The position numbers and the translations under genes are program-made. The notes beneath the pieces were generated by a model, which saw only the letters and a list, made by a program, of their open reading frames with translations, was not told the origin of the DNA and did not search any database. Below are positions 16,916 to 63,144 of a stretch of DNA of 64,000 bases, piece after piece (the first letter of the stretch is position 1; each line of letters begins with the position of its first letter). Source of the stretch: an uncultured Thiothrix sp. (GTDB lineage: Bacteria; Pseudomonadota; Gammaproteobacteria; Thiotrichales; Thiotrichaceae); NCBI GenBank assembly GCA_964293005.1, contig CAXYXW010000020.1, positions 3,766 to 67,765 on the forward strand, written 5' to 3'.

Positions 16916-16917
16916 TC

Positions 16918-18486: not shown

Positions 18487-18526
18487 CAACATGACAATCT
18501 TCAAGGCATAACAACAAGGATCAACC

Positions 18527-19633
18527 ATGAGCGACACCAACAGCGGTACTATTATCCAGAACGTCCTGCGCCAGCACGCGGAAACGGAATTTGCCCACGA
18601 ACTGGCAGCCCTGCGTGAATATGATACTCAACCCCGCCCCCCACGCTGGCAATTGTCGCCGTGGGCAGTGCGTACTTATTTGCTGGGGGGGGAGCTGCCC
18701 GGTGGCATTGTCATTAGCCCCAAATACATCGGCAGTTCGCGCCTGATGGAGATTGCCATTTCCACGCTGGCAACCGACCGTGCCTTGCTGCTGTATGGTT
18801 TGCCCGGTACGGCAAAGTCGTGGGTTTCCGAACACTTGGCCGCCGCCATTTCGGGGCGCTCGACCCTGATTGTGCAGGGGACAGCAGGCACGGGCGAGGA
18901 AACCCTGCGTTATAACTGGAACTATGCGCAACTGATTGCCAAAGGCCCTTCTGAAGCGGCGTTGATTGAAAGCCCGGTGATGCATGCCATGCGTAATGGC
19001 CTGATTGCGCGGGTGGAGGAGCTGACCCGCATCCCGGCAGATGTGCAGGATACGCTGATCACCATCTTGTCGGAAAAGATGCTGCCAATCCCGGAGTTGA
19101 ATAGTGAATGTCAGGCACAAAAGGGCTTTAACCTGATTGCCACCGCCAATAACCGTGATAAGGGTGTCAATGAGCTGTCAAGTGCTTTGAAGCGGCGTTT
19201 TAATACGGTGATTTTACCCATCCCGGAAACGCTGGATGAGGAAGCCAGCATTGTCGATCGTCGGGTGGGCAGTTTGGGGCGTGCGCTTGAATTACCGGCA
19301 GAAAAACCGGCCTTGGCTGAAATCCGCCGAATTGTCACGATTTTCCGGGAGTTGCGCAGTGGTGTAACCGAAGATGGTAAAACCAAACTGAAAATCCCGA
19401 CCGGTACACTCAGCACTGCCGAAGCAATCTCCGTGGTGGGCAGCGGCATGGCTTTGGCAGCCCATTTCGGCGATGGCAGCCTGACGGCGCGTGATTTTGC
19501 GGCAGGTTTGATCGGGGCAGTGGTGAAGGATCCGGTGCAGGATAGTGTGGTCTGGAAAGAATACCTGGAAACTGTGGTTAAGGAACGTTCAGACTGGAAA
19601 GATTTATATCGTGCCTGCCGTGAGGTCATTTGA
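18527..19633 (+). CDS. MoxR-family AAA+ ATPase
   Basis: Walker A LLYGLPGTAKS, Walker B and sensor regions typical of MoxR/CbbQ-like ATPases. About 368 aa. Confidence 0.8.
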   Translation: MSDTNSGTIIQNVLRQHAETEFAHELAALREYDTQPRPPRWQLSPWAVRTYLLGGELPGGIVISPKYIGSSRLMEIAISTLATDRALLLYGLPGTAKSWVSEHLAAAISGRSTLIVQGTAGTGEETLRYNWNYAQLIAKGPSEAALIESPVMHAMRNGLIARVEELTRIPADVQDTLITILSEKMLPIPELNSECQAQKGFNLIATANNRDKGVNELSSALKRRFNTVILPIPETLDEEASIVDRRVGSLGRALELPAEKPALAEIRRIVTIFRELRSGVTEDGKTKLKIPTGTLSTAEAISVVGSGMALAAHFGDGSLTARDFAAGLIGAVVKDPVQDSVVWKEYLETVVKERSDWKDLYRACREVI

Positions 19634-19690
19634 GAATTTCTGAGTATTTAAACAGCGGATCGACTTGAATTGCCTATTTAATCGGCGCTG

Positions 19691-19724
19691 GGCAAGGCTG
19701 TACCTTTATCGGAAAAGCCTTGCC
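19691..19724 (+). terminator. Candidate intrinsic terminator/hairpin after the ATPase gene
   Basis: Perfect 9 bp stem GGCAAGGCT ... AGCCTTGCC with a 16 nt loop, followed by a T-rich tract. A TATAAT lies at about 19734. Confidence 0.3.
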
Positions 19725-19881
19725 ATTCATCTATAATATTTATACTGTTAGCTTATTCGCGCCCGTATTCACCCACAAACCATATAAAAAATTAATAAGG
19801 TGGCGTTTTGATAACGGGTCTTTTGCCGATTATTATGGCTTAAACAGCCTTTAACTCGGTTCCTGATTTCAGGTTGATCGG

Positions 19882-22260
19882 ATGAGCACACAAAATTATA
19901 CCAAGCTGAAATTATTACAAGCACTCGACGGCGCATTGCTGGTGGTGATGTTGTTGACGTTTGCAACACTGACATGGCTGAGCTTGAGTGATCTTTCAGC
20001 AAAAGCCCAGCATAACCTGTTGGAGTCGACTGCCGTGCTGGAGCAGGTGGAAAAAGACTTCATCGGGCAGCTCAGCAGGGAAGCGCATATTGATGAAAAC
20101 CGCAAAACCCTTGAGCAATTGAATGATGCTTTTTTCAAGCTGGCCTTTGATCCGGGCAGCATTGAGGAGAGCTTGCCACACCTGCGGACATTGGGTGAAA
20201 CATTCGATGCCCAGCGCCAAGTGTTGTTGCAGGAATGGCCGGGTAATTTCAGACCCTTGCTGCGTGACTCTTATGAGCTTGTCAGCGATAAGCTGGTTGC
20301 AAGCCTTGTGCAAAGCCAAACCTTAGCTTCGGATCAATGGACGGTATTTGCGGCGGATATTCGTACCCAGTTGTTGGCAACCCGTGAAGTGGTGGAGGAA
20401 ATCGACAGTATTGGTAATAGCCTCGGCGTATTGGTGAGTGACAGTATCCAGCTTTCGATCAATAGTGCCAACCGCAGTGTGGGGCAAATGAAAAGCCAGA
20501 TTGTGCAAATCCGCGAGAATGCGGTTTGGGCGATGCTGGGTTTGATGATCCTGCTGCTGTTGAGCCGGATTTATTTCTCCCACCGTTTCGGCATGCTGAC
20601 CCGCGATGCCCAGCAGGCACAGCAGCAGGCAGAAAATGCAGTCAAGACCAAGACCCGTTTCCTGGCGACCATGAGCCATGAAATCCGTACCCCGATGAAT
20701 GGGGTGATTGGTATGACCCGCTTACTGATGGATACCCCTTTGAACCAGCGGCAAGCTGATTTTGTCGAGAGTATCCGCCTGAGTGGTGAACATTTGTTGA
20801 CCGTGATTAATGATGTGCTGGATTTTTCACGGATTGAGGCAGGCAGGTTTGAACTCAAACAGGAGGCTTTTGAGCTGCGTTCCTGCGTTGAGGAAATCCT
20901 GAGCCTGCTGCATGCCAAGGCGGTGGAGAAAAACCTGGAGTTGACCTATGCAGTGCACACCGCCGTGCCACTCTTTATTGTCGGCGATCAGGTGCGTTTG
21001 CGGCAGATACTCACCAACCTGATTGGTAATGCCATCAAGTTTACGGAAAGTGGCGAAGTGACAGTATTCGTGAACCAGAAATCCGAGGCTAAATCAATGC
21101 GTGATCTGGTTGGCGTATCAGTTCATGAGCTGGAGTTTGAGATCCGTGATACCGGCCCTGGTATCCGTGCCAGCCGTTTGGGTAGTATTTTTGAGCAATT
21201 CAGCCGTGCCGATGAAACCTTGGTCAGGCAGCACGAAGGTACTGGGTTGGGCTTGAGCATTTCCCGCCATTTGGTGGGAATGATGGGCGGGTCTATCTGG
21301 GTGGAAAGCCGGGTTGGGGTTGGCAGCCGCTTTTTCTTTACCCTACAGGCACGGCAAGGAACAGGCGCATTGCAGGCTATCCATCAGGCCTCTATTCCCG
21401 CCATCAGTGGCAAACGCATCCTGGTTATTGAAAACAATCCTGCCAATAGCCAGGCCTTGCGTGATTATTGCTTGGGTTGGGGGGCAGAGGTTGAGCTTGC
21501 CAGTTCGGTTGCGGAAGCGGTCAGTTGGTTGGCATCCGGCAAAACGTATGGGTTAGCCTTGCTGGATGGGCATGTGGCAGAAACCGCTGCCATGGATTTT
21601 GCCCAGTATGTGCGCCAGCGTTCCCAACAGAAAGCATTGCCGCTGGTGCTGATGATCCAGCCCAATGATCGGCAGGAGGCGGTGCATGTCCTGTATAATG
21701 CCCTCCTGACCAAGCCGATGACCCGCAGCCGCTTGCTGGACAGTTTGCTGGCAGCTCTGGGTGGGCAAGCCGCCCTGCCTGAGTCGAAGGTGGTTGTGGA
21801 GGGCCAGAAATTAGGGGAGAGTTTGCCGCTGAGTGTTTTGCTGGTGGAGGATAACCGCATTAACCAGATCGTTGCCACGGCTATCCTCAAGCAGTTGGGC
21901 TATCAGGCTGACCTGGCGGAAAATGGCTTGGTCGCGGTCGCTGCCATGCACAAGAAAGCTTACGATGTTGTCTTTATGGATATGCAAATGCCAGAAATGG
22001 ATGGCGTGCAGGCCACCCGCTGTATCCGTGCCGAATTGCCGCCTGAGCGCCAGCCGGTAATTATTGCCATGACAGCGAATGCCCTAGAAAGTGACCGGCA
22101 GGAGTGTGTGGCAGCAGGCATGAATGATTACACCAGCAAGCCGGTTTTGCCGGAAACGGTTAAAGCCCTGCTGGAAAAGTGGGGGGCGGGTAGGGTTGCC
22201 CATACCCGTACAGCCCCGTCTGGCTCAGGTTTGCCTAACGCTTACCTGCCTGTTGCGTAA
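19882..22260 (+). CDS. Hybrid sensor histidine kinase / response regulator (periplasmic sensor, HisKA, HATPase_c, two receiver domains)
   Basis: Two TM helices flank a ~170 aa extracytoplasmic domain. H-box MSHEIRTPMNGVIGM, N/G boxes, then a degenerate REC (VIENN...LLDGH...LTKP) and a canonical REC (LLVEDNRINQ...VFMDMQMPEMDG...YTSKP). Confidence 0.85.
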   Translation: MSTQNYTKLKLLQALDGALLVVMLLTFATLTWLSLSDLSAKAQHNLLESTAVLEQVEKDFIGQLSREAHIDENRKTLEQLNDAFFKLAFDPGSIEESLPHLRTLGETFDAQRQVLLQEWPGNFRPLLRDSYELVSDKLVASLVQSQTLASDQWTVFAADIRTQLLATREVVEEIDSIGNSLGVLVSDSIQLSINSANRSVGQMKSQIVQIRENAVWAMLGLMILLLLSRIYFSHRFGMLTRDAQQAQQQAENAVKTKTRFLATMSHEIRTPMNGVIGMTRLLMDTPLNQRQADFVESIRLSGEHLLTVINDVLDFSRIEAGRFELKQEAFELRSCVEEILSLLHAKAVEKNLELTYAVHTAVPLFIVGDQVRLRQILTNLIGNAIKFTESGEVTVFVNQKSEAKSMRDLVGVSVHELEFEIRDTGPGIRASRLGSIFEQFSRADETLVRQHEGTGLGLSISRHLVGMMGGSIWVESRVGVGSRFFFTLQARQGTGALQAIHQASIPAISGKRILVIENNPANSQALRDYCLGWGAEVELASSVAEAVSWLASGKTYGLALLDGHVAETAAMDFAQYVRQRSQQKALPLVLMIQPNDRQEAVHVLYNALLTKPMTRSRLLDSLLAALGGQAALPESKVVVEGQKLGESLPLSVLLVEDNRINQIVATAILKQLGYQADLAENGLVAVAAMHKKAYDVVFMDMQMPEMDGVQATRCIRAELPPERQPVIIAMTANALESDRQECVAAGMNDYTSKPVLPETVKALLEKWGAGRVAHTRTAPSGSGLPNAYLPVA

Positions 22261-23407
22261 CAATTCCAGCCTTGGCAGCCCAGATACCCAAATCCTGTTT
22301 GCTTAAGGCATTCGCCATCAGCTCCGGGAACTGGTCGGGGGTACAAGCAAACGTCGGGATGCCCAAGGCGGCAAATTGTGCCGCCATGTCATGGTCATAA
22401 AACGGCGCACCTTCATCGCTTAAAGCCAGCAATGAAATCACCTGTACGCCAGAGGCCACCAGACTTGCCACCCGTTTGAGCATTTCCTTGCCATTTCCCC
22501 CCTCGTACAAATCGCTGATGAGGATAAAAACCGTGTCTTCCGGGCGTGAAATCAGTCCTTGGCAATAGCCGACTGCCCGGTTGATGTCGGTCCCCCCGCC
22601 CAGTTGCAAGCCAAACAGCAAATCCACCGGGTCATCATGCAACTCAGCGGTGAGGTCAACAATCGAGGTATCGAATACCACCATGCGTGTACTTAACGCC
22701 GGGATGGAGGCCATCACTGCCGCAAAAATGCTGGAATAAACGACCGATGGGGCCATCGAGCCACTTTGGTCAATGCACAGTACCACCTCTTTCAGGGCAG
22801 AGCGCTTGCGTCCGTAGCCGATACGGATTTCCGGCACAATCGCATTGTATTCCGGCAAGTAGTTCTTGATATTGGCGCGGATGGTACGGTTCCAGTCGAT
22901 TTCTTGCAGACGCGGACGGCGGTTGCGGATGGAGCGGTTGAGTGCGCCTTTGACGGCCTGTTGCATCGGTTGTTGCAAACGGCGCAGCAATTCATCAACC
23001 ACCTTGGCAACCACCAGCCGCGCAGTTGACTTGGTTTTGCCAGGAATCACATTTTTCAGGGAAATCAGCGTGGCAACCAGGTGGATGTCGGCTTCTACCG
23101 CTTGCAGCACTTCGGGTTCCAGCAACAATTGGCGTAAACCCAGCCGCTCAATCGCATCTTGCTGGATCACACGCACGACCGAAGAAGGGAAATATTGGCG
23201 GATGTCGCCCAGCCAGCGGGTGACATTGGGCGCAGAAGCGTTGAGGCTACCCCGTTTGCCCCCGCCATTGTTTGCCCCATCGCCATACACAGCAGACAGG
23301 CAATTGTCCATGCCCTGCTCTAAGCCACTGAGTGAGCAGCCAATGCCATCGGCATCCCCACCACCGAGGATCAAGCGCCAGCGTTTTTGGTGTTGTTCGT
23401 TGTTCAT
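22235..23407 (-). CDS. VWA domain protein (MIDAS motif DxSGS)
   Basis: VLCIDQSGSM is a MIDAS-like motif. Overlaps the upstream DUF5682-like gene by 4 nt (ATGA). Confidence 0.75.
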   Translation of the reverse strand: MNNEQHQKRWRLILGGGDADGIGCSLSGLEQGMDNCLSAVYGDGANNGGGKRGSLNASAPNVTRWLGDIRQYFPSSVVRVIQQDAIERLGLRQLLLEPEVLQAVEADIHLVATLISLKNVIPGKTKSTARLVVAKVVDELLRRLQQPMQQAVKGALNRSIRNRRPRLQEIDWNRTIRANIKNYLPEYNAIVPEIRIGYGRKRSALKEVVLCIDQSGSMAPSVVYSSIFAAVMASIPALSTRMVVFDTSIVDLTAELHDDPVDLLFGLQLGGGTDINRAVGYCQGLISRPEDTVFILISDLYEGGNGKEMLKRVASLVASGVQVISLLALSDEGAPFYDHDMAAQFAALGIPTFACTPDQFPELMANALSKQDLGIWAAKAGIVTQQAGKR

Positions 23408-25710
23408 GCTGCTAACCCCAATAGCATCGCCAGCAATGGCAAGGCCGTTTGTGCCCGTTCCTCATCTACATCAGTATTGGCTGCCACTACCACTGGCAAG
23501 GCTGCTTGCCCTTGTTTGACCCGCTCACCCATTTGCCGCCGTTCGGGGGCTTCAAAGGTGGAGAAGGTACGGCGTAGAACGGGCAACAGCGCTTGGAAAG
23601 CTTCATCCGTGAGGCTGGCTACCCAGCGGTCGATCAGGTTCCAGAGGGTTTCATCATAGATCAGCAGTTGCCCGCTGCCACGCAGGAAACCATCTACCCA
23701 AGCGGCGGCATGGGCAGGCTCATTGGCAGCGGATAAGGCCAGGCCGAAACGACGGGCGCTGGCTTCCCCGTCCAGCAGACCCGATTGCAGCAGCAGGCGG
23801 CAACAACGCCCTGCCAACAGCGGATGCAGGCCGTACTGATCCAGCAGGGTTTCCAGGGTGCGTGTCCATTGCCCGCTGAAATCGGCATCATCCAGCAGGT
23901 GGATGGCTTCCTGCACCGCCTGGATTTGCGTGAACATGGCTTCAGCCGCCTCTTCATTCAGCGCACTGCACGCATTCGGCAAGCCAATACAGATGCGTGT
24001 AACCATGCCATTGACCACATGACTGACTTGTCCGGCAGCGGTTTTACGCACATCGCCATAACGCAGCAATTGCGCCAGCTCAGGCAATGCCCGCATCAGG
24101 TGCAGGATGTCACTGCTGATCGCCGCTTCGGTTTGCAGGCGTTGCATCAGTATATGAACGGCGCTGGGCAGATTGGCATAAAGTGCGGCATGCGCCATCT
24201 GGGCAAGCTGCTCCAGGGCGGTGGTATCGCGTGCTTGGCTGGTCAGTTTGTGGCTGGCAGCGGTTTCCAGCGTATTGCCCCAAAAACCTGCCTCAATCAG
24301 GCGGATGGCAAATTCCGGTTGCCAGAGGATACGCCAGTTTTCCTTGAATGTGCCTTTGCCACTGGCACGCTTGCCACCCTTGCCCCAATCAATGCTGAGG
24401 ATTTGCAGGCGGCGCAGCAGGTAACTGCGTTCGAGGTCGGTCGGTTTGCGCAAGTCCAGCAGCAATTCAGCATCGCTGGCACTGGGTTTGAGGCGCAGGC
24501 GTTTTTGTTCCTGAGCCAAATCTTGCTGGAGTGGAGTTTGTGGGGTTTCATCCGGCACATTGCCCAAGGATTCACCGATCAACAAACGCCGGTGCAGGAG
24601 CTGCATCGGGGTGGCATCGCCAAACAGCATGACGCTTTGTACAGATTCATTCAGCTCTGCCAATCCGGGTAAGGGCCGCCCGCGCATCGCTGCCAAGGTT
24701 TCTGCCAGCCGCACGGTTTCGATAATGTGCGCCGATGAGATGTCGATGCCTTGGGTGCGGAAGGTGTGCGCCACTTGGGTTAGCCAGCGTGAAGTCAGGG
24801 TACTGGCAGCATGCCCCAGTGGGAATTTCAGGTTGTGGTTCCAGATATGCGCATACCATCCGGGCGCATCGACACCTGCCCCGTAGCCGCTGGCTTGGCT
24901 CAGGCGGTCATACGTCCAGGGAACCCAGGTGGCAGTTGTCTTGAGTTTGGGCAGCCCTTTGAGCAGGGCATCATCGGCTTTGGCGACTGGCATGTCCTGC
25001 AAGGCCGGGACGTGCCATGCACCGCAGACCACCGCAATGGTTTGGAAGCCGTCCTTCTGGGCTTGGCGGATAGTTTTACGCATGTGGGCTTCACGCCATT
25101 GCTCATGCATCTGTTCGGCTGGGTCGCGGGGGCTATCGGTCTGATCGGCATCGACGGCAGTCCGCAAGGCGGTCATGGCTTCGGCAATCGCCTGAAATAA
25201 TTCCGCAGAATCTTGCCGCTCCTCAACCATGTGTTCCCACCAACGTTCACTATCAGCGTAACCGGCAGCCTCTGCCAGTAAAGCCAGTGGGTCGTGGCGG
25301 ATGTTGCGCTTGTCACTGGCATCATTTAGCGGAGCTTGTCCGCTTTCGGCCTCTGGCGCTGGGGTGGCGGGTGTTGCTTCCAATGCCTTGTCGTGGGCAA
25401 AGCGGATGGCAACCGGCAAATCCATAAAACGTACCGGAATCCCCCGTTGCAGGGCATGGCGAATCGCTTGCCATTCGGGGGAAAAGTCCGCGAAGGGGTA
25501 GTAAACGGCACGTTGTGGTTCATCAGGGGCATATAACAGCAAGGCAACCGGTGCTTGCATTTGGGCGTGCAATACCAAGGGCAGGATGTTATCGGCTTCG
25601 GGTGGGCCTTCGACCAGAATGCAGTCCGGCTGCAAGTTGTCCAATGCGTGGGCAAGGCTGCGGGCAGAGCCGGGGCCGTGGTGACGGATACCGAACAGGT
25701 GGTATGGCAT
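23404..25710 (-). CDS. DUF5682-like large protein (module partner of MoxR and VWA)
   Basis: About 770 aa helical protein, translationally coupled to the VWA gene. Probable start MPYHLFGIRHHGPGS. The DUF number is from memory. Confidence 0.5.
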   Translation of the reverse strand: MPYHLFGIRHHGPGSARSLAHALDNLQPDCILVEGPPEADNILPLVLHAQMQAPVALLLYAPDEPQRAVYYPFADFSPEWQAIRHALQRGIPVRFMDLPVAIRFAHDKALEATPATPAPEAESGQAPLNDASDKRNIRHDPLALLAEAAGYADSERWWEHMVEERQDSAELFQAIAEAMTALRTAVDADQTDSPRDPAEQMHEQWREAHMRKTIRQAQKDGFQTIAVVCGAWHVPALQDMPVAKADDALLKGLPKLKTTATWVPWTYDRLSQASGYGAGVDAPGWYAHIWNHNLKFPLGHAASTLTSRWLTQVAHTFRTQGIDISSAHIIETVRLAETLAAMRGRPLPGLAELNESVQSVMLFGDATPMQLLHRRLLIGESLGNVPDETPQTPLQQDLAQEQKRLRLKPSASDAELLLDLRKPTDLERSYLLRRLQILSIDWGKGGKRASGKGTFKENWRILWQPEFAIRLIEAGFWGNTLETAASHKLTSQARDTTALEQLAQMAHAALYANLPSAVHILMQRLQTEAAISSDILHLMRALPELAQLLRYGDVRKTAAGQVSHVVNGMVTRICIGLPNACSALNEEAAEAMFTQIQAVQEAIHLLDDADFSGQWTRTLETLLDQYGLHPLLAGRCCRLLLQSGLLDGEASARRFGLALSAANEPAHAAAWVDGFLRGSGQLLIYDETLWNLIDRWVASLTDEAFQALLPVLRRTFSTFEAPERRQMGERVKQGQAALPVVVAANTDVDEERAQTALPLLAMLLGLAA

Positions 25711-25913
25711 ACAGGTTGTCCTTTTGGAGCGCATATTGTTGGTTATTGCTGGGGATTGTAGCAGGATTTTTACAGCTTATCCCCCATTCACCCCCGCCTA
25801 TCTTCCATTTTCCACACTTTATGAGCTGATCCCATGCCCCGTTACATTTGCGTCCTATGCTCAGGGAAGTAGAAGAACCTATTTATCCACCAAAAAACGC
25901 ATAGGTGAACGGC

Positions 25914-28138: not shown

Positions 28139-28831
28139 TTAAACTTCTTGCATGATCCGCACCACCCGCGCATCCAGACACGAGCGCAGGAAGGCATTCA
28201 TCGCGGTTTCATCGCCCGACGTATAAAACGCCAGCATCAAGGTGTTGAATTCCAGTTGGCGTTTGGCGGGCAGGTTGATGGCGGGGTAGCCATGCTGGAG
28301 CAAATGCCCATTCATCATGAAACGCCCCATGCGCTTGTTCACGTCGTAGAAAAACTGGCAACGTGCCATCGTCAGAAACAGATGGATGGCTTGGTCGTAA
28401 ATGTCGTCGATGTGGGCAAGGTCGGCAACCATTGCCTGGAAACGGGCAGGCAATTCGGCAACCGGCGGTGGCATATAATCCGTTCCGGCGATGAGTACGC
28501 CACCTGTGCGGAAACAGCCCCATTCCAGTGCTTCCTCTTTGCCTGCGACGGCGTGGAGTGCGCAGGCTGTTGCGGCGGAAACGCTGAATTCACCGCGCTC
28601 AAGCCAGCCAAACAATAACCGCCATGCGTTGCCTTGATTGACCGTGATTTGCTGGTCGGACAGTTTGTGTCCACCGACGGTGATGCCATCCAGCAGGGTT
28701 TGGACTTCCGGCAGGGTCATGTTGATGCCTTCCAGATTGACGGCATCGCAAACGAATTCGCTGAGTTGGCGTTTTGCCAGCATCAGGGCTTTGGCGGGGT
28801 TGGGGGGGATTTGCCAGTGGGTGTCTTGCAT
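28139..28831 (-). CDS. Fic/Doc-fold protein with a degenerate active-site motif
   Basis: QFFYDVNKRMGRFMMN aligns to the Fic motif HPFxDGNGRxxRLLxN. His->Gln and Gly->Val/Lys substitutions are seen directly. Confidence 0.6.
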   Translation of the reverse strand: MQDTHWQIPPNPAKALMLAKRQLSEFVCDAVNLEGINMTLPEVQTLLDGITVGGHKLSDQQITVNQGNAWRLLFGWLERGEFSVSAATACALHAVAGKEEALEWGCFRTGGVLIAGTDYMPPPVAELPARFQAMVADLAHIDDIYDQAIHLFLTMARCQFFYDVNKRMGRFMMNGHLLQHGYPAINLPAKRQLEFNTLMLAFYTSGDETAMNAFLRSCLDARVVRIMQEV

Positions 28832-33409: not shown

Positions 33410-35008
33410 ATGATACGTCTGACCGAATTGCGCCTGCCGCTTGACCATAGCCCGGATGCCCTGCCTGCTGCCATTGTGCGGCGTTTGGGGTTGGCTCCGG
33501 CTGATTTGCTGGAGTTCCATGTTTTCAAGCGCGGTTATGATGCCCGCAAGCGTGATGCCGTGGTGCTGGTGTATACCCTGGATGTGCAGCTTGCCGATGA
33601 GGGGGCGGTGCTTGCCCGGTTTGCGGCGGATGCGCAGGTATCACCCAGCCCGGATACCCGCTACCGTTTTGTTGCCCAAGCCCCGGAAGGCTTGCCATTG
33701 CGTCCGGTGGTGGTGGGCTTTGGCCCGTGTGGGATCATGGCGGCACTGGTATTGGCGCAGATGGGCTTCCGCCCGCTGGTGCTGGAGCGGGGTAAGCCGG
33801 TGCGTGAGCGTACCAAGGATACATGGGGTCTGTGGCGTAAGCATGTGCTGAACCCGGAGTCGAATGTGCAGTTTGGCGAGGGTGGGGCAGGGACGTTCTC
33901 CGATGGCAAGCTCTATAGCCAAATCAAGGACACCAAGCATTATGGGCGCAAGGTATTGGCTGAATTTGTCAAAGCCGGTGCGCCGGAAGAAATCCTGTAT
34001 GTCAGCAAGCCCCACATTGGCACTTTCCGGCTGGTGAAGATGGTTGAAAACATCCGGGCGCAAATTGAGGCGTTGGGTGGGGAAATCCGTTTCCAGCAAC
34101 AAGTGACGGATGTGCTGGTCGAGGAGGGGCATATCCGGGGACTGACCTTGGCGAGCGGTGAACAAATCCGTGCTGACCGGGTGGTTCTGGCGTTGGGGCA
34201 TAGTGCGCGGGATACCTGCGAAATGCTGTTTGGGCGCGGGGTTTTTATGGAGCAAAAGCCTTTCTCCGTCGGGTTCCGTGTCGAGCATCCGCAAAGCCTG
34301 ATTGACCAGGCACGGTTTGGCAAATTTGCAGGCAACCCCTTGTTGGGGGCGGCTGACTACAAGATTGTGCACCATGCCAAGAATGGGCGTTCGGTTTACA
34401 GTTTCTGCATGTGTCCGGGCGGGCAGGTGGTGGCAGCAGCTTCTGAACCGGGGAGGGTCGTCACCAACGGCATGAGCCAGTATTCACGCGCTGAACGCAA
34501 TGCCAATGCCGGAATTGTGGTGGGCATCACCCCGGAAGACTATCCGGGGAACCCCTTGGCGGGGATTGAGTTCCAGCGCCATTGGGAAGCACGTGCCTAC
34601 GAGCTGGGCGGTCGTGATTATTCAGCCCCGGCGCAATTGGTTGGTGATTTCATCAAAGGTATCCCCTCGCGGCAATTGGGGACAGTGGAGCCATCCTACC
34701 AGCCGGGCGTGCGCCTGACTGACCTCGCCAGTAGTCTGCCCGCTTATGCGATTGAGGCGATCCGTGAAGCTCTGCCTGCGTTCGAGCGCCAAATCAAGGG
34801 TTTTTCCATGTACGATGCGGTACTGACCGGTGTGGAAACCCGAACCTCCTCACCCTTGCGCATTACCCGTGGGCAGGATTTGCAAAGCCTGAATGTGCGT
34901 GGCCTGTATCCGGCAGGGGAAGGGGCAGGCTATGCCGGTGGGATTTTATCCGCCGGGGTTGATGGTATCCGCGTGGCAGAGGCGTTGGCATTGGCGACGG
35001 TGGGGTAA
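33410..35008 (+). CDS. FAD-dependent protein of the COG2509 family (NAD(FAD)-utilising dehydrogenase-like)
   Basis: Dinucleotide-binding VVVGFGPCGIMAALVLAQMG, GGAGTFSDGKL, and a C-terminal FAD-dependent domain. Confidence 0.7.
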   Translation: MIRLTELRLPLDHSPDALPAAIVRRLGLAPADLLEFHVFKRGYDARKRDAVVLVYTLDVQLADEGAVLARFAADAQVSPSPDTRYRFVAQAPEGLPLRPVVVGFGPCGIMAALVLAQMGFRPLVLERGKPVRERTKDTWGLWRKHVLNPESNVQFGEGGAGTFSDGKLYSQIKDTKHYGRKVLAEFVKAGAPEEILYVSKPHIGTFRLVKMVENIRAQIEALGGEIRFQQQVTDVLVEEGHIRGLTLASGEQIRADRVVLALGHSARDTCEMLFGRGVFMEQKPFSVGFRVEHPQSLIDQARFGKFAGNPLLGAADYKIVHHAKNGRSVYSFCMCPGGQVVAAASEPGRVVTNGMSQYSRAERNANAGIVVGITPEDYPGNPLAGIEFQRHWEARAYELGGRDYSAPAQLVGDFIKGIPSRQLGTVEPSYQPGVRLTDLASSLPAYAIEAIREALPAFERQIKGFSMYDAVLTGVETRTSSPLRITRGQDLQSLNVRGLYPAGEGAGYAGGILSAGVDGIRVAEALALATVG

Positions 35009-35245
35009 GCTTGTACTCGTGGTATCTGAGTTTTCATGCAGATCATCCCGATTAAATTTCCAAGTGTTGGCATTACCTTGTCCTGAGAGGGATAAAAACT
35101 CATCAAAACTGGCATTCGCTTGCTGCTGGCGGGTGAGTTGTTCCAAGTACTCGCGCACCATTTGGTTAAGGCTTTTGCCCATATCCTGCGCAATTTTGCG
35201 GGCATCATGGACAACTTTATCGTCTATTGATAGGGTGATATTCAT
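34946..35245 (-). CDS. Ribbon-helix-helix (VapB/CopG-like) antitoxin-type small protein, apparently without a cognate toxin gene
   Basis: MNITLSIDDKVVHDARKIAQDMGKSLNQMVREYLEQL is typical of RHH antitoxins. The 3' end overlaps the end of the FAD-dependent gene. Confidence 0.35.
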   Translation of the reverse strand: MNITLSIDDKVVHDARKIAQDMGKSLNQMVREYLEQLTRQQQANASFDEFLSLSGQGNANTWKFNRDDLHENSDTTSTSLPHRRQCQRLCHADTINPGG

Positions 35246-35277
35246 TACACAGTCTCCGTGTCCACGTAATAAATGCA

Positions 35278-36519
35278 TTATGGTATCAGACCTGACACGC
35301 AACGCTGGTAGCGCCCATTCACCGTGGTGGCAAATTTTTCGGTGGTAAGGATGCGAGATGCTTTTTCACTGCGCAGGGTGATGCCCGGAATGATGGCATA
35401 CGGGGCGGTTTGCCGGGTTTGTTTGCGGTAGGCTGCCATGATCGCCTTGTAGGTGCGGGTGTCGTTGAAGGCCAGTGTTTTTTCCTGTGCAAAATCCTTG
35501 CGGATGTCGCTGGCCTTTAAGGGCAGGCCGAGTTGCCCAGCCACGGCAAGGGTGGCTTTTTCTGTGCCACTGGTGCTGGCTGCCACTGCCCCGTCTTCTT
35601 GGTAAATCAACAGGTCGCCATCGGTGGCAAGCCCTTTGCCCTGCAAGGCACTGACGGCGGCTTGGAAGGCAGCATTGCGGCTGCTATAGCGCCCCGCATT
35701 AAAATCAGCAAAGCGGTAGATTTTCTTGTCATAGCCGGTTTTATACCCCAGCAATAACAGCGTGCCATAATATAAACTGCCCTTGCGGGTATATAACTTA
35801 TCCCTGACTCCATAAACCTCCTCCAGCGACAAGGCTTTACCGTTACGCTGTTCGGTTTCATATTGCACCGCAAAACTGACCGCCACTTGCATGGAGCCGA
35901 TGGTGTCGATTTCATTATTGCCCTCAATTAAATCGCGTGCAAAGCCATTATCCAGCAACAGGCCGAGTTTATATTGGCGGGCATATTGCCCCAAGCCCGT
36001 GATCAGGTCGCGGTAGGCCAGGTCAAGGTCACGTTCGGTTTTGGCCTTGCGGATACGCTGCATGAAACTGTTGCCCTTATCCGGGAATTGGTTAAGGAAT
36101 AAGGCTGCCCCATCCCCCAGCATGGGTATTTTGTTGAGTTTCTGCAAAACCGCCTGTTCAGAAAGCTTGCCCAGGTTTGGTACAGCGGGGTTGGCAACAA
36201 AGCCAGACTCCTGGTCGGTGATGGCAATCACGGCACACACATTTTCCAAGGATTGCGGCAAGCCATGCAAGCGCAGCGCCTCCAACAGGTCGAGCGCCCA
36301 ACCGCGTGGGTCGCGGGCGTTGGGTTCGGCGGCTTTGATCAGGCGTGCTGTTTGTTCAAGCGGAATGGCAGGTGCAGTCGGCTCATCGCTTGTTTGGATT
36401 TGCACATCCGTGAGCTGTTCCTTAATACTCGGATAAGCCCAAATACCCAGCGCAACCAGCAGAAAACCCAATAGCCACATCAGCAGTGACTGCACCTTTT
36501 CCCAGAGCCAATCCATCAT
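35278..36519 (-). CDS. Membrane-anchored hypothetical protein (possibly DUF1615-like)
   Basis: N-terminal TM helix followed by a ~380 aa domain. No catalytic motif recognised. Confidence 0.4.
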   Translation of the reverse strand: MMDWLWEKVQSLLMWLLGFLLVALGIWAYPSIKEQLTDVQIQTSDEPTAPAIPLEQTARLIKAAEPNARDPRGWALDLLEALRLHGLPQSLENVCAVIAITDQESGFVANPAVPNLGKLSEQAVLQKLNKIPMLGDGAALFLNQFPDKGNSFMQRIRKAKTERDLDLAYRDLITGLGQYARQYKLGLLLDNGFARDLIEGNNEIDTIGSMQVAVSFAVQYETEQRNGKALSLEEVYGVRDKLYTRKGSLYYGTLLLLGYKTGYDKKIYRFADFNAGRYSSRNAAFQAAVSALQGKGLATDGDLLIYQEDGAVAASTSGTEKATLAVAGQLGLPLKASDIRKDFAQEKTLAFNDTRTYKAIMAAYRKQTRQTAPYAIIPGITLRSEKASRILTTEKFATTVNGRYQRCVSGLIP

Positions 36520-36576: not shown

Positions 36577-37185
36577 ATGGCAATTAACCACCCCATTTCC
36601 CGTCGTCAATGGTTGCAGTATAGCGCAGCCGGTACACTGGGTTTACTGTTGCCTGTTTTTCCGATCCAGGCGGGGGCGCTGGATACCGGGGCAATCCTGC
36701 GCCTGCATCCGGTGCGTTATATCGGCGGTTTGATTTTCAATACCGTCGTGGCGGTTATCACCAAATTGGCGGAGGAGGAAATGGTGCAGGCGCTGCAAAC
36801 CGGCAAGCCCTTACCACCCTACCAGCGGCAAACCCGTTGCCAAGTGGCTTGTGATGACAGCCAGTTCCACCCTCCGCATTATAAGGCAGCGGTGGTTTTG
36901 TCAGGTTTGGCGGGTTATCAGGCTCACCGCCAGCGCCGTCTGGAGCTGCTGCTGCAAGACCCGGCACAGGTGGCACGTTTCAAGGATATGCTGCAATACC
37001 TGCGGGATGAGCGCCTGCGGGTGCGCCTGGTCGGGATGGAATACCCGCAATTGGTGGGCAAGGACATGATCCCGGATGATTTTTTCACTTTGGATCACTA
37101 CGGGTTGACCCCACACAAGGCCGAGCATGTGCAGGCCTTGGTGGAGCTGACGGGGACAGGGGCTTTTACGGATTGGAGCGTGTGA
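36577..37185 (+). CDS. Tat-signal hypothetical protein
   Basis: Twin-arginine motif SRRQWLQYSAAGTLGLLL. Its stop overlaps the start of the next gene (TGATG). Confidence 0.45.
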   Translation: MAINHPISRRQWLQYSAAGTLGLLLPVFPIQAGALDTGAILRLHPVRYIGGLIFNTVVAVITKLAEEEMVQALQTGKPLPPYQRQTRCQVACDDSQFHPPHYKAAVVLSGLAGYQAHRQRRLELLLQDPAQVARFKDMLQYLRDERLRVRLVGMEYPQLVGKDMIPDDFFTLDHYGLTPHKAEHVQALVELTGTGAFTDWSV

Positions 37186-39056
37186 TGCGGTTGTGGGTAG
37201 GGGTGATGGTGTGGTGCTTGGCAAGCACTGTGCAGGCGGATACCTTGACGCGGCGTGAGGTGCAGATCATGCACGATGCAGGTATCCGCATGGCCTTGAT
37301 GCGGGCGGATGGCACGAGTGAAAAGCCGTATGTGATCCCGGTGGAGATCAGGCCAGAGGTGTTGTTGCAAACCGAGTTACTGGATTTCTCCGGGCAACCG
37401 TTGAGCCAAGTGCCGGGTTGGTTGGTGAAGTTCAAAAACCTGCGCAAGCTGGATTTGTCCAATACCGGCCTGCGGGTGGATGGCAACCTGTTGGCAGCGT
37501 TGGGGAATATGCCGGAATTGAGTGTGCTGAACCTGTCCGGCAACCCCTTGTTCCCGGAGAATGACTGCCTGTTCTTTTGTGATCCGGTGGTGACATTGAA
37601 CGGCGTTTGGCAGAAGCTGACGCAACTCACCGAGCTGCGTTTGACCAATACGGGCGCAACGGCTGAGAACCTGGGCAGCTTTGCCCCTTTGGAAAACCTC
37701 ACCCATTTGTATCTGGGCGGCAATCGAATTGGCGATGGGATAACCAAGCTGGGCTTGGCGAACCCCTCCAACCTGAAGAAGCTCAATTTGGATAATAATG
37801 GCATCAGCCAAGACCCCTTGCCGGATTTGCCCACCCAAAGCCTCGTGGAGTTGAGTCTTGCCGAGAATGACCTGCGGGAACTGGCGTTTGTGGATATGCC
37901 GAATCTGGAGCAGTGGGATGTGAGCCGTAATCCCAACCTGAAACTGGCAACGGGGTTTGGGGATATGTTTGCTTTGGGGGCGTTGCAGGTGTTGGGGTAT
38001 GACCAACCGTACCACTTGCCCGCCCCACTGCTGAAGCGGATGCAGGCTAAGATGGAGCAGGCAAAGGCAGCGATAGCAAAGGCTGAACAGCTTGAACAGG
38101 AGCGCAAGAAAGCAGCGTTGCACGCTGAACAGGAACGGCAAGCAGCCATAGCAAAGGCTGAAGAGGAGCGTAAGAAAGCGGCAGAGCAAGCTGAACAGGA
38201 ACGGCAAGCAGCAGCCCGCCGTCAAGCGGAAGAGAAAGAAAGGGCAGCGATAGTAAAGGCTGAGCAGCTTGAGCAGGAACGCAAGAAAGCGGCGGCAAAA
38301 GCAGCCACCCGCCAGCCTTTCGAGCCGGAGATGGTATCAATCCCCGCTGGGAAATTCACGATGGGTTGTGACGGCAAGCGCGATGATGTGGAAGGCGGTT
38401 GTTTTGACAATGAAAAACCTGCCCACACAGTTACCCTCAATGCATTCGAAATGGGCAAATATGAGGTGACGTTTGATGAATGGGATGCCTGCGAACAGGC
38501 AAATGTCTGCCCCCATGCGGATGATTACGGTTGGGGTCGTGGCAAGCGCCCGGTGATCAATGTCAGTTGGAATGATATTACCCAAAAGTACCTCCCGTGG
38601 TTGAACCGGGAAACGGGTAAGCTCTACCGTTTACCGACCGAAGCGGAATGGGAGTATGCAGCGCGGGGTGGTCAGGGTGGGGCGTATCCTTGGGGGCAAG
38701 AGGCCAGCCATGAATATGCCAACTATGGTAAGGATACATGTTGCGGTGGTTTGGCTTCTGGCAAAGACCAGTGGGAGTACACTGCCCCTGTTGGCAGTTT
38801 TGCTGTAAATGGTTATGGCCTGCACGATATGCACGGCAACGTGTGGGAGTGGGTGGAAGATTGTTGGCAGGGTGATTACAAAGATGCCCCGGTGGATGGT
38901 AGCGCCCGTCAGGGTTGCGGCGCGGATGCGTCGCGTGTGTTGCGCGGCGGGTCGTGGTACGGCACTCCTCTGTGGTTGCGTTCCGCCTACCGCGACTACT
39001 ACACGCCCACGTACCGTACCTCCGGTGTGGGTTTTCGTGCTGCCAGGACTAATTGA
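37185..39056 (+). CDS. Secreted LRR / coiled-coil / formylglycine-generating-enzyme (FGE-sulfatase) domain fusion protein
   Basis: Signal peptide. LRRs (LRKLDLSNTGL, LSVLNLSGNPL, LTHLYLGGNRI, LKKLNLDNNGI). Repetitive KAEQLEQERKKAA coiled coil. C-terminal FGE domain (PAGKFTMG...YRLPTEAEWEYAARGG...LHDMHGNVWEWVEDCW...RVLRGGSWY). Confidence 0.7.
   Translation: MRLWVGVMVWCLASTVQADTLTRREVQIMHDAGIRMALMRADGTSEKPYVIPVEIRPEVLLQTELLDFSGQPLSQVPGWLVKFKNLRKLDLSNTGLRVDGNLLAALGNMPELSVLNLSGNPLFPENDCLFFCDPVVTLNGVWQKLTQLTELRLTNTGATAENLGSFAPLENLTHLYLGGNRIGDGITKLGLANPSNLKKLNLDNNGISQDPLPDLPTQSLVELSLAENDLRELAFVDMPNLEQWDVSRNPNLKLATGFGDMFALGALQVLGYDQPYHLPAPLLKRMQAKMEQAKAAIAKAEQLEQERKKAALHAEQERQAAIAKAEEERKKAAEQAEQERQAAARRQAEEKERAAIVKAEQLEQERKKAAAKAATRQPFEPEMVSIPAGKFTMGCDGKRDDVEGGCFDNEKPAHTVTLNAFEMGKYEVTFDEWDACEQANVCPHADDYGWGRGKRPVINVSWNDITQKYLPWLNRETGKLYRLPTEAEWEYAARGGQGGAYPWGQEASHEYANYGKDTCCGGLASGKDQWEYTAPVGSFAVNGYGLHDMHGNVWEWVEDCWQGDYKDAPVDGSARQGCGADASRVLRGGSWYGTPLWLRSAYRDYYTPTYRTSGVGFRAARTN
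38061..38306 (+). repeat. Imperfect tandem repeats (~60-70 nt units) encoding the coiled-coil linker
   Basis: Repeated ...gcgatagcaaaggctgaacagcttgaacaggagcgcaagaaagc... units. Confidence 0.5.
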
Positions 39057-39180
39057 CCTTTTCCCTTTACCGTCAGTGCCACCCAAACCAAGGCTTTAGG
39101 TAGGCTTTACCGGGTGGGCGGGCGGTGGGGCGGCCTTCATACCGCGCTTGGCGCGGTCGATTTTTGGGTGGGCGGGCTTT

Positions 39181-60998: not shown

Positions 60999-61016
60999 CT
61001 AAAGCATACTTGGCAC
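60999..61016 (+). promoter_or_regulatory. Sigma-54-type (-24/-12) promoter upstream of rtcB
   Basis: cTTGGCACagccaTTGCAat has GG and GC elements with the canonical spacing (TGGCAC-N5-TTGCA). It lies about 55 nt upstream of the rtcB ATG. Confidence 0.5.
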
Positions 61017-61072
61017 AGCCATTGCAATACTTTAAGCACAATACAACGGCAATGAGCCAAGGAGAACCTACC

Positions 61073-62305: not shown

Positions 62306-62334
62306 CGTTCCAGCGCGATTTCAAAGAGTTTATC

Positions 62335-62367
62335 GAGATACTCAACAATCACTCGGTTGAGTATCTT
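62335..62367. other. Strong hairpin at the GC/AT composition boundary after rtcB
   Basis: GAGATACTCAAC - 9 nt loop - GTTGAGTATCTT. No clear U-tract. Confidence 0.35.
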
Positions 62368-62434
62368 GCCAAGTTCCGATAGATTACATACTCTGTTTTG
62401 AACGAAATATCTTCGCGGGGCTTGATTTTAACGC

Positions 62435-63142: not shown

Positions 63143-63144
63143 AC

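Follow-up and report, generated by a model that had tools for sequence, protein, structure and literature searches.

Lectin domains of the formylglycine-generating enzyme (FGE) fold that are diversified by DGRs are the principal counterpart, in prokaryotes, of antibody-like, anticipatory variation. FGE-type and Lcl_C/DUF1566-type domains are the two main classes of C-type-lectin-like (CLec) DGR targets, and remote targets have been documented for cellular DGRs (Wu et al. 2018; PMC5758913). Most partners described for such lectin heads are death or immunity modules of the cytoplasm (TIR, caspase, STAND, MoxR-vWA), or else adhesins of phages and pili, and a term search for LRR in the main texts of three DGR target surveys gave zero occurrences. 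Here, we describe a conserved and previously undescribed two-gene unit, located on a 64-kb stretch of DNA (referred to as the window), in which a Tat-type protein (ORF1) is coupled to a protein with a leucine-rich repeat (LRR) base and an FGE-fold head (ORF2). ORF2 is most likely a ligand-binding receptor of the cell envelope.

Organization and Conservation of the ORF1–ORF2 Unit

The unit and its closest surroundings comprise the following features:

36577-37185, + strand: ORF1, 202 aa, with an SRRQWL twin-arginine leader
37185-39056, + strand: ORF2, 623 aa, exported, with LRRs, a helical stalk, and a CLec (FGE-fold) head
37175-37187, + strand: coupling junction, with GGAG at 37175-37178, the ORF1 TGA at 37183-37185, and the ORF2 ATG at 37185-37187
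39141-39165, + strand: likely intrinsic terminator of the ORF1–ORF2 unit, ACCGCGC-TTG-GCGCGGT followed by a T-run
35278-36519, - strand: divergent neighbour with a DUF1615 domain (Pfam E = 5e-99), membrane-anchored, with ES...GSMQ...FNAG motifs

The stop codon of ORF1 and the start codon of ORF2 have a single A in common (TGATG), and the GGAG Shine–Dalgarno sequence lies 6 nt 5' of the ORF2 ATG, which is an ideal spacing. The same arrangement of ORF1 end and ORF2 start was found in L001, L008, L009, L010, L016, and L017. ORF1 homologues (27–78% identity) are directly adjoined by an LRR-module gene in L001, L008–L013, L016–L020, L023, and L024, in reversed order in L022, and lie beside a CLec-only gene in L014 and L021. 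By tblastn, the LRR module adjoined ORF1 homologues in 17 loci, and all 25 loci examined carried an LRR and/or CLec gene beside the ORF1 homologue. Hosts of the unit include Thiorhodospira sibirica, Thiodictyon, Thiothrix MAGs, Ca. Electrothrix gigas, and Sulfurovum. The two-gene unit proposed by an earlier, sequence-only reading on the basis of the TGATG overlap is confirmed, as the gene order, and often the overlap too, recurs in independent loci. The same reading had regarded the combination of LRR and FGE domains as an unusual architecture; the architecture is indeed present, but a search of other genomes showed that it is no one-off. ORF2 defines a small conserved family consisting of LRRs, a variable stalk, and a C-type-lectin-fold head, which is always partnered by a member of the ORF1 family. 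The head is either of the FGE type or of the Lcl_C/DUF1566 type, and the two types are interchangeable.

Substitutions in ORF1 and ORF2 fall mostly on third codon positions, which points to purifying selection on each of the two genes. Together with the independently recurring gene order, this identifies them as separate genes and not as products of a frameshift, a concern that had also been raised. The exact ORF2 protein is present on three public contigs, the longest of which has 67,765 bp. Besides the DUF1615 gene, the neighbours of the unit in the window encode a HEAT protein, ArgB, and an FAD oxidoreductase; siderophore or secondary-metabolite genes do not flank the unit, and neither ORF1 nor ORF2 matched a defence system in PADLOC.

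The DUF1615 gene adjoins ORF1 in L001, L003, L008, L009, L014, L017, and L021, and is missing beside ORF1 in L012, L016, L018, L019, L022, and L023. Its linkage is restricted to Thiothrix-like lineages, and it was therefore rejected as a third core component. In the PDB, the DUF1615 protein matched only an endolysin, and weakly so (E = 0.016). Scanning GTDB species genomes for the syntenic locus by means of the DUF1615 protein revealed no relatives, and relatives were recovered upon rescanning with the ORF1 alignment.

ORF1 Represents a Rare Family with a Twin-Arginine Leader

The N-terminus of ORF1 is formed by the following feature:

36577-36678, + strand: twin-arginine (Tat-type) leader of ORF1, MAINHPISRRQWLQYSAAGTLGLLLPVFPIQAGA, with cleavage likely after AGA

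The residues S8-R9-R10-Q-W-L are followed by the hydrophobic stretch AAGTLGLLLPVF and by AGA. The motif S-R-R-x-[FW]-L is conserved among 37 ORF1 family members, with R9 being invariant and R10 present in at least 90%. Twin-arginine motif, h-region, AGA, and family conservation thus bear out the Tat signal predicted earlier for the 202 aa protein. A profile comparison with the CueO signal-peptide chain gave a weak match (E = 0.8), which is suggestive at most. The family is rare (60 clusters among 1.84 billion representatives), has no match in Pfam, NCBIfam, PADLOC, or PHROG, and was previously undescribed. The mature part is predicted to form an alpha/beta domain, a fold that gave no clue to function, and a recognisable cofactor motif or cofactor-binding fold was not found. 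In the syntenic allele P0123, the first 36 aa of ORF1, i.e., the Tat leader, are joined directly to a CLec domain.

ORF2 Combines a Conserved LRR Base with a Stalk of Variable Length

Five features were assigned to ORF2:

37185-37238, + strand: Sec-type signal peptide, MRLWVGVMVWCLASTVQA followed by D, without lipobox, as read from the sequence
37239-38000, + strand: family-specific N-terminal cap and eight LRRs, the conserved module of the family (Pfam, AlphaFold2, alignment)
38022-38294, + strand: helical stalk rich in E/K/R/Q/A, with imperfect tandem repeats in its DNA and strain-variable length
38325-39047, + strand: FGE-sulfatase-fold (C-type-lectin-like) domain without FGE catalytic cysteines, closest solved relative PvdO
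38958-39029, + strand: stretch resembling a DGR variable region (VR), YGT-P-LW-LRSA-Y-R-DYY-TP-TY-R-TSG-V on the scaffold GGSW...GFRAARTN

The hydrophobic N-terminus is kept in eight of eight aligned ORF2 family members, and the AlphaFold2 model has pLDDT values < 50 for aa 1-18. Pfam matches to LRR_4 (7.6e-13) and LRR_8 (1.3e-12) lie above cutoff and cover about aa 67-250, where AlphaFold2 placed eight LRR strands (aa 65, 88, 114, 150, 174, 199, 222, and 243; pLDDT 88-98). Invariant positions were found within the LRR module of the family alignment. The N-terminal LRRs of an exported protein are thereby supported by Pfam, AlphaFold2, and the Sec-type leader. Foldseek searches with the ORF2 model returned SDS22, Leptospira LRR proteins, and internalins, which repeats the sequence matches.

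The stalk was modelled as a single uninterrupted helix (aa 280-370; pLDDT ~75). Its imperfect tandem DNA repeats, seen before in the sequence, were recovered both by TRF (33-bp period at 38110-38213, 3.3 copies, 70% matches) and by self-BLAST, which paired 38055-38117 with 38232-38294 (86%). The earlier designation as a coiled coil holds in part: the segment is helical and rich in E/K/R/Q/A, hydrophobic residues at a/d positions are few, and the composition would also fit a single alpha-helix or a TolA-domain-II-like spacer. Among homologues, stalk length ranges from 0 to ~95 aa, with no stalk in P0005, P0027, and P0032, and differing lengths in L001, P0018, and P0007.

The FGE-Fold Head Lacks the Catalytic Residues of FGE

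The C-terminal FGE-like domain was confirmed (Pfam FGE-sulfatase, PF03781: aa 381-621, E = 2e-52, 178.8 bits vs. a cutoff of 23.3). In the PDB, the head matched PvdO best (5hha, 1.3e-41), followed by FGEs (~1e-28) and TvpA (2y3c, 7.7e-19). AlphaFold2 modelled the CLec half poorly, with pLDDT < 50 over aa 500-614. Conservation of the catalytic cysteines had been named as a check, and both are absent from ORF2: the position of human C336 is occupied by Gly, and that of C341 by a gap or Trp (GGSWYGTPLW---LRSAYR of ORF2 vs. GGSYMCHRSYCYRYRCAAR in the alignment to 1y1e/31dc). NCBIfam scores stayed far below cutoffs for PvdO (166.4 vs. 500 bits), EgtB (80.6 vs. 360), SenA (86.7 vs. 420), and OvoA (41.6 vs. 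400), and likewise for GldK. The N-terminus of ORF2 consists of LRRs, and neither a DinB nor a His-triad domain was found. With the cysteines and a DinB domain missing, and with so low a score against PvdO, an enzymatic role of the head is unlikely, and with it the previous interpretation as a modification factor. Lacking the FGE catalytic cysteines, the head most likely binds a ligand. The sole PF00884 gene in the window (10849-12840) encodes a multi-TM LtaS/MdoB-type transferase without the C/S-x-P-x-R motif, and was thus rejected as a client of a true FGE.

The C-Terminus of the Head Resembles a DGR Variable Region

The FGE-type CLec domain ends three codons short of the ORF2 stop codon, and its last ~40 residues are built on the scaffold seen in DGR variable regions. 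The head can be assigned to the CLec class that is hypermutated by DGRs (TvpA, 'FGS' domains). In the VR-like stretch, each of the 11 codons equivalent to Asn is of the NNY type (NNY fraction of the whole gene 0.47; p ~ 2e-4 in a post hoc test), and adenine amounts to 11.5% compared to 22% in the remaining domain; the codons TGG (38973) and ACG (39009) do not fit a simple mutagenesis of AAY. The scaffold aligns to the TR-encoded peptide of L014 and to the 'GFRAART' family, and seven caspase-, TIR-, or PEGA-fused proteins combine the same scaffold with different variable positions. Between the LRR-FGE orthologues P0027 and P0032, the ratio of differences at codon positions 1 + 2 to those at position 3 is 23:3 in the VR vs. 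92:129 elsewhere (Fisher p = 4e-6).

A bona fide DGR acts on the CLec gene next to the ORF1 homologue in L014. In this locus, the ORF1 homologue is followed by the CLec gene (VR 7533-7658), HRDC, an RT with the motifs IGxxxSQ and YMDD, and the TR (9029-9154), which encodes ...GGSWNNNAQNVRSANRNNNTPDNRNNNIGFR; 17 of 18 TR/VR mismatches are located at TR adenines. A separate LRR-module gene lies 2.5 kb beyond.

In the 64-kb window, BLASTN of 38800-39100 (word size 7) and a self-BLAST of the window revealed no TR repeat in cis, tblastn with L014 proteins gave only noise for RT and HRDC, and there is no second FGE paralogue. With neither TR nor RT in the window, ORF2 would be either a remote (in trans) DGR target or a frozen former one. 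Most LRR-CLec loci have no RT within ±10 kb, and a DGR beside the 'GFRAARTN' family member P0094 (L025) was rejected on the same grounds. Two IUPAC patterns, one specific to the window and one resembling a TR with AAY codons, had 0 matches in JGI metagenome contigs and IMG/VR, a result that is uninformative as the contig of the window evidently lies outside these collections. In L014 and L003, the VR is closely followed on its 3' side by a GCGGC-loop-GCCGC hairpin, which is missing in the window; about 18 nt after the stop codon are common to the window and an unrelated gene in L025. The cluster of ORF2 at 90% identity contains no VR variants, the exact protein occurs on several contigs, and the VRs of the sister alleles P0123 and P0214 are identical; signs that diversification is still going on are thus absent. 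DGR action on this copy of ORF2 is putative, and current diversification is unproven.

Stalk and Head Are Exchanged between Closely Related Strains

In the syntenic allele L003, 92% DNA identity to the window stops exactly at 38957. Strain L017 (96.8% identical) lacks the segment 38052-38298, shows an apparent frameshift inside the LRR region, and its contig ends at 38939. L008 and L009 are 97.4% identical through the LRR end and then unrelated for ~1.4 kb. Turnover of cassettes at the strain level was thus seen twice (window/L003/L017 and L008/L009), with stalk and head being replaced between ~97%-identical strains. Full, stalk-less, and LRR-less heads in near-identical strains represent natural 'experiments', which mark head and stalk as exchangeable cassettes. 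Both this swapping and the VR-like C-terminal 40 residues had been overlooked by the first interpretation as an FGE-type factor; taken together, they indicate a variable ligand-binding head.

Proposed Role and Alternative Explanations

We consider it reasonably probable that ORF1 and ORF2 form a receptor-like envelope module, with the head of ORF2 being a variable ligand binder that bears a DGR imprint. ORF1 would be a small alpha/beta protein exported in folded form via the Tat pathway, and ORF2 a Sec-exported, receptor-like protein with a conserved base of eight LRRs, a lectin-fold head of the FGE subtype, and between them a helical stalk that varies in length. The last ~24 codons of the head would bear the mark of an adenine-targeted mutagenesis acting on AAY codons, and the whole stalk-plus-head cassette is additionally exchanged among near-identical strains. 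ORF2 could thus bind or sense ligands in the periplasm or at the surface, with rapidly changing specificity, and its conserved LRR base probably docks to ORF1 or another constant partner. A more far-reaching version, which we put forward only tentatively, holds that sulfur-oxidising and other filamentous or aggregating bacteria possess an envelope 'variable receptor' system, in which the LRR is docked to the Tat-exported partner and the head is re-specified by a DGR in trans as well as by cassette exchange.

PvdO, the closest solved relative (E = 1.3e-41 over the whole domain), is tied to a redox step and its model tops the NCBIfam matches, making a PvdO-like periplasmic enzyme or cofactor conceivable, e.g., one that oxidatively matures a secreted metabolite or peptide. 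The LRR would then deliver the substrate, and ORF1 would be a cofactor-bearing redox partner, in line with Tat export being typical for redox proteins containing cofactors. However, the score reaches only 166 of the 500 bits required for the equivalog, siderophore and secondary-metabolite genes are absent from the flanks, and neither a cofactor motif nor a cofactor-type fold could be recognised in ORF1. Moreover, the non-enzymatic Lcl_C domain freely substitutes for the head in orthologous loci, and a hypervariable C-terminal segment is unlike an active site. We therefore regard this explanation as quite improbable. A genuine FGE or an EgtB/OvoA-type sulfoxide synthase, targeted by the LRR to a sulfatase or other client, is suggested by the strong Pfam match and by the PF00884 'Sulfatase' family gene in the window, but is practically negligible given the loss of both cysteines, the lack of DinB and His-triad domains, EgtB, SenA, and OvoA scores far below cutoff, and the transferase nature of the PF00884 protein.

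The VR-like pattern may also be an inherited scaffold, shaped by ordinary diversifying selection and recombination between paralogues in a copy that never was a DGR target. This would agree with TR and RT being absent from the window and from the vicinity of most family members, with identical VRs across contigs, and with the differences between the VRs of the window and L003, which affect non-adenine positions and the tail and thus imply cassette recombination. We nevertheless consider it unlikely, as the NNY-only codons and the depletion of adenine are hard to achieve by ordinary substitution, the multi-base changes between P0027 and P0032 gather at codon positions 1 and 2, a true DGR works on the equivalent gene of L014, and remote targets of cellular DGRs have precedents (PMC5758913). 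Finally, the apparent frameshift in L017 could hint at an artefact, i.e., a frameshift-split gene or a decaying pseudogene; this is very improbable in view of the two-ORF layout kept across many loci with a separate export signal on each ORF, the third-position-dominated substitutions, the ideally spaced Shine–Dalgarno sequence, and the occurrence of the exact proteins on several contigs.

The locus contributes an exported, LRR-based chassis for lectin heads of the DGR class, and a rare, strictly co-occurring, and unannotated family of partners with predicted Tat export. It furthermore calls for a correction of annotations, since the names 'formylglycine-generating enzyme' and 'SUMF1/EgtB/PvdO family nonheme iron enzyme' sit on proteins without catalytic residues.

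Comparison with Known Systems

Like PvdO from the pyoverdine maturation of Pseudomonas (5hha), its best solved relative over the whole domain, ORF2 is predicted to be periplasmic and lacks the FGE cysteines. In contrast, PvdO is a single-domain protein without hypervariable tail, and ORF2 has no pyoverdine context and scores below the equivalog cutoff. SUMF1 (FGE) and SUMF2 (pFGE) have the fold in common with the ORF2 head, which is devoid of Cys336/Cys341 equivalents, as is the inactive paralogue pFGE, and there is no fGly-type sulfatase nearby in the window. With internalins and Leptospira LIC LRR proteins, ORF2 shares an LRR solenoid behind a signal peptide (weak Foldseek and NCBIfam matches). 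This similarity is of a generic kind, as the N-terminal cap is family-specific and the C-terminal modules differ.

Sister members of ORF2 bear Lcl_C/DUF1566 heads in place of FGE, which connects the family to Legionella LdtA and other DUF1566/Lcl_C DGR targets ('category d', CLec2). LdtA is displayed on the cell surface and reportedly has a Tat leader (Arambula et al. 2013). Allele P0123, with its direct fusion of Tat leader and CLec domain, brings this trait to the present locus. Unlike LdtA, the window has the Tat leader on the partner protein, ORF2 is without lipobox, and there is no adjacent DGR.

ORF2 further resembles the FGE-type DGR variable proteins (Treponema denticola TvpA; 'category b' of Wu et al. 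2018; 'FGS' of Kaur et al. 2020; putative antigen sensors of Dore et al. 2024), which share with ORF2 a C-terminal FGE-sulfatase-fold domain without the residues for FGE activity. Common to both are the variable last ~40 residues on GGSW-xxx-..-RSA-x-R-xxx-.P-..-R-xxx-.GFR, NNY variable codons, and N-terminal partner domains that are freely swapped, always N-terminal to the CLec domain. The FGE-type CLec family is expanded in filamentous and aggregating sulfur bacteria, where it is fused to TIR, caspase, CHAT, and kinase domains. ORF2 differs in that the 64 kb are free of TR and RT and that diversification was not observed, that its N-terminal partner is an exported LRR array, in contrast to the cytoplasmic STAND or MoxR-vWA systems, and that it is coupled to a partner of an undescribed family with predicted Tat export. 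If true, the variable receptor would mirror, in the periplasm or at the surface, the cytoplasmic antigen sensors that are diversified by DGRs and have been proposed for multicellular bacteria.

Layout and Domains of the ORF1–ORF2 Pair

The two genes share one base, as the stop of ORF1 and the start of ORF2 overlap in TGATG (37183-37187), and a GGAG motif lies 6 nt 5' of the ORF2 ATG.

36577-37185, + strand: ORF1, 202 aa
37185 (ATG) to 39056, + strand: ORF2, 623 aa

Pfam assigned LRR_4 and LRR_8 (~aa 67-250) and an FGE-sulfatase domain (aa 381-621, E = 2e-52) to ORF2, and gave no family assignment for ORF1, to which NCBIfam, PADLOC, and PHROGs added nothing. ORF1 begins with a twin-arginine leader, MAINHPISRRQWLQYSAAGTLGLLLPVFPIQAGA, and ORF2 with a Sec-type leader, MRLWVGVMVWCLASTVQA/D. 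In the AlphaFold2 model of ORF2, the LRR region comprises eight strands (pLDDT 88-98), aa 280-370 form a single unbroken helix, and the C-terminal half is badly resolved. The linker DNA consists of imperfect repeats, with a 33-bp period at 38110-38213 (TRF) and a repeat pair at 38055-38117/38232-38294 (self-BLAST). Domain, leader, repeat, and model results therefore confirm what the sequence-only reading had described, i.e., a putatively exported fusion of LRRs and an FGE fold with a repetitive linker and a start codon overlapping the upstream stop. The proposed coiled coil was borne out only as a long helical spacer rich in E/K/R/Q/A.

Conservation of the Gene Pair

A first word-indexed search returned three ORF1 relatives only; when 1.84 billion representatives were scanned exhaustively with HMMER, the family came to 60 clusters, almost all with proteins of ~200 aa. 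None of the 40 proteins from a profile search carried a Pfam domain. Across 37 aligned family members, the RR motif is kept (R9 invariant, R10 at least 90%), and P45, R47, G51, Y102-K103-A104, G110, Y141, D167, T192, and F197 are likewise invariant. In every readable locus, the ORF1 homolog adjoins an LRR-module gene and/or a gene for a C-type-lectin-fold (CLec) domain, and the recurrence of this pairing, often with a stop/start overlap, upholds the suggested two-gene unit.

Gene order in the window and at homologous or related loci (L numbers)
ORF1, then LRR-CLec gene, often with stop/start overlap: window, L001/2, L008, L009, L010, L011, L012/13 (Ca. Electrothrix gigas), L016, L017, L018, L019 (Thiorhodospira sibirica), L020, L023, L024 (Sulfurovum)
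Inverted order: L022 (Thiodictyon)
ORF1, then CLec-only gene: L014/15, L021

When the window is compared with L001 or L008, substitutions in ORF1 and in the LRR module alike fall mostly on third codon positions, so that both are real, constrained genes; that the two reading frames are an artifact is extremely improbable. A divergent DUF1615 gene beside ORF1 was rejected as part of the core unit, since its synteny is confined to Thiothrix-like lineages. Its product (35278-36519, - strand) carries a membrane anchor at its N-terminus and shows ES...GSMQ...FNAG motifs resembling those of soluble lytic transglycosylases; in the PDB, it matched a single protein, an endolysin, and only weakly (E = 0.016).

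The FGE-Fold Domain as a Candidate Enzyme

The closest solved relative of the ORF2 FGE-fold domain is PvdO (5hha, E = 1.3e-41), with solved FGEs ranking after it (~1e-28); TvpA, the variable protein of a Treponema diversity-generating retroelement (DGR), matched at 7.7e-19 (2y3c). In the alignment to human FGE, neither catalytic position holds a cysteine, C336 lying opposite Gly and C341 falling in a gap beside Trp. Scores against the NCBIfam equivalogs were all far under cutoff (PvdO, 166 vs. 500; GldK, 99 vs. 350; SenA, 87 vs. 420; EgtB, 81 vs. 360). With the catalytic residues gone and such equivalog scores, the "modification factor" proposed earlier becomes unlikely, and so does FGE-, EgtB-, or PvdO-type catalysis. 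A true FGE has next to no chance, given the two missing cysteines and the lone PF00884 "Sulfatase" protein of the window (10849-12840, - strand), which lacks the C/SxPxR motif. A PvdO-like redox function of the head, to which the proximity to 5hha points, is improbable in light of the PvdO equivalog score. The PF00884 protein itself is a multi-TM, LtaS/MdoB-like transferase (VSIESLG...LRTVRG), and was ruled out as a formylglycine-dependent sulfatase on account of this type and the missing motif.

Turnover of Head and Stalk between Strains

Among eight aligned members of the ORF2 family, the signal, cap, and LRR region are well conserved, the linker ranges from zero (proteins P0005, P0027, and P0032) to ~95 aa, and the C-terminal domain is either FGE-type or made of one or two Lcl_C/DUF1566 domains. 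According to Wu et al. 2018 (PMC5758913), these types are the two main CLec classes found in proteins that DGRs target. Three alleles occur at the window locus among strains with 96-97% flank identity, namely those of the window, L017, and L003-L006. The L017 allele is missing exactly the linker (38052-38298), and its LRR is apparently frameshifted. In L003-L006, syntenic to 36577-39056, nine unrelated bases link the Tat leader of ORF1 (its first 36 codons) directly to the CLec domain, making one 282-aa gene (proteins P0123 and P0214) with the tail of another variable region (VR) family (GFRLVLP). Another case comes from a second species, where L008 and L009 show 97.4% identity across DUF1615, ORF1, and the LRR, have essentially nothing in common in the stalk and head (~1.4 kb), and return to 95% identity beyond. 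The ORF2 head is an interchangeable part.

The variable stretches of this second species (L008:2894-4358 vs. L009:2800-3812) encode unrelated stalk/Lcl_C heads, with two Lcl_C domains vs. one, between conserved flanks and with a BrnT/BrnA toxin-antitoxin pair downstream. L003-L006 carry an extra downstream PDDEXK_2 (Rpn-like) gene that the window lacks. A second strain-variable spot near the pair is the gap between an FAD-dependent gene and DUF1615 (window 34946-35302, - strand), which holds small toxin-antitoxin-like genes that differ by strain (window, DUF6364; L017, PIN+RHH; L001, UPF0175+DUF3368) and is empty in L003.

A DGR at a Homologous Locus and a DGR-Like Footprint in the Window

Locus L014 comprises, in this order, DUF1615 (- strand), an ORF1 homolog, a 317-aa signal-peptide CLec gene, HRDC, a reverse transcriptase (RT; 8373-9011, with IGxxxSQ and YMDD), and a template repeat (TR), then an Rpn-like gene and, as a gene of its own, the LRR module (10219-11613; Sel1-like C-terminus). 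The TR (9029-9154), which encodes ...GGSWNNNAQNVRSANRNNNTPDNRNNNIGFR..., and the VR (7533-7658) show 18 mismatches, 17 of them at TR adenines. L014:6710-11613 is a true and complete HRDC-type DGR that acts on the CLec gene beside the ORF1 homolog. Thus, LRR module, ORF1, and DGR-diversified CLec are separate but linked in L014, and fused or coupled in the window.

The tail of ORF2 (GGSW-YGT-P-LW-LRSA-Y-R-DYY-TP-TY-R-TSG-VGFRAARTN) can be aligned to the scaffold encoded by the L014 TR. In the VR-like stretch of the window (38958-39029), all 11 Asn-equivalent codons are NNY (47% gene-wide), and adenine makes up 11.5% vs. 22% across the remaining domain. The 92% DNA identity to L003 along the domain ends exactly at 38957, the base preceding the first variable codon; the L017 contig stops at 38939, short of the stretch. 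The invariant scaffold "...P..LRSA.R....P..R...VGFRAART" recurs, with differences at interspersed positions, in seven other proteins of Thiothrix- or Thiolinea-like origin, all of them fusions with caspase, TIR, or PEGA domains. Two LRR-FGE orthologs, P0027 and P0032, show 82% identity outside the VR vs. 37% inside, and their substitutions at codon positions 1+2 and 3 shift from 92:129 to 23:3 (Fisher p = 4e-6). Furthermore, ~18 nt past the stop (ACCTTTNCCCTTTAYC) are common to window 39054-39075 and L025:11600-11622; the L025 gene, one of these seven, is an unrelated TIR-PEGA-FGE fusion from a Thiolinea MAG with a matching GFRAARTN tail. The common stretch is a possible cis element of this family of VRs.

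Neither a TR, an RT, nor a second FGE paralog was found in the 64 kb of the window, and TR-pattern scans of public collections from which the window's contig is evidently absent (JGI metagenomes, IMG/VR) gave zero matches. A GC hairpin 3' of the VR is present in L014 and L003, not in the window. The exact ORF2 protein occurs on three contigs, no VR variants are contained in its 90% cluster, and P0123 and P0214 have the same VR; moreover, two codons of the VR-like stretch are at odds with AAY mutagenesis. The absent elements, invariant VRs, and misfit codons therefore limit our assessment: the window copy was probably shaped by a DGR at some time, and its diversification in trans at present is less likely than not. 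That the pattern is a scaffold inherited without a DGR is rather unlikely. A remote TR would read roughly ...CGTGTGTTGCGCGGCGGGTCGTGG AAC AAC AAT CCT CAG AGG TTG CGT TCC GCC AAC CGC AAC AAC AAC ACG CCC ... GGT TTT CGT GCT GCC AGG ACT AAT.

Other Features of the Window

A MoxR-vWA-type system (15572-25734) lies 11-20 kb upstream of ORF1–ORF2, and no link to the pair was found.

within 15572-25734: 447-aa protein, unassigned
16858-18486: DUF5691
18527-19633: AAA_5 MoxR-like ATPase
19882-22260: hybrid histidine kinase/response regulator
22235-23407, - strand: VWA_CoxE
23404-25734, - strand: DUF5682

Inverted repeats of 100 bp (28950-29049/29461-29560; 94% identity, ~400 bp between) adjoin a Fic/DOC gene (28139-28831) and may be a small mobile or MITE-like element. 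Direct repeats at 8654-9045/13738-14132 (71-77% identity, ~5 kb apart) are probably paralogous gene segments near an Omp85-family gene. The stretch 62001-64000, after RtcB (61010-62305), has a GC content of 0.42 vs. ~0.55 elsewhere, holds an Exo_endo_phos gene (62435-63142), and may be foreign DNA.

Proposed Function and Comparison with Known Systems

Our functional reading has moved from a modification factor to a variable binding head that sits on a conserved LRR chassis and is accompanied by a novel Tat partner. The architecture, the missing catalytic residues, the conserved pairing, and the turnover of cassettes are established, and the remainder of the proposed mechanism is inferred. ORF1 would be exported folded via Tat and ORF2 via Sec; the constant LRR base could have ORF1 or some other invariant part of the envelope as its partner, the helical stalk would set the reach, and the CLec head might bind a changing ligand, e.g., a phage, a neighboring cell, or a surface polymer. 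LRR partners are not mentioned in the main text of PMC7159879, PMC10907252, or Roux et al. 2021. The footprint in the window and the related sequences agree with published accounts of FGS/CLec sensors in multicellular bacteria (Kaur et al. 2020, PMC7159879; Dore et al. 2024, PMC10907252).
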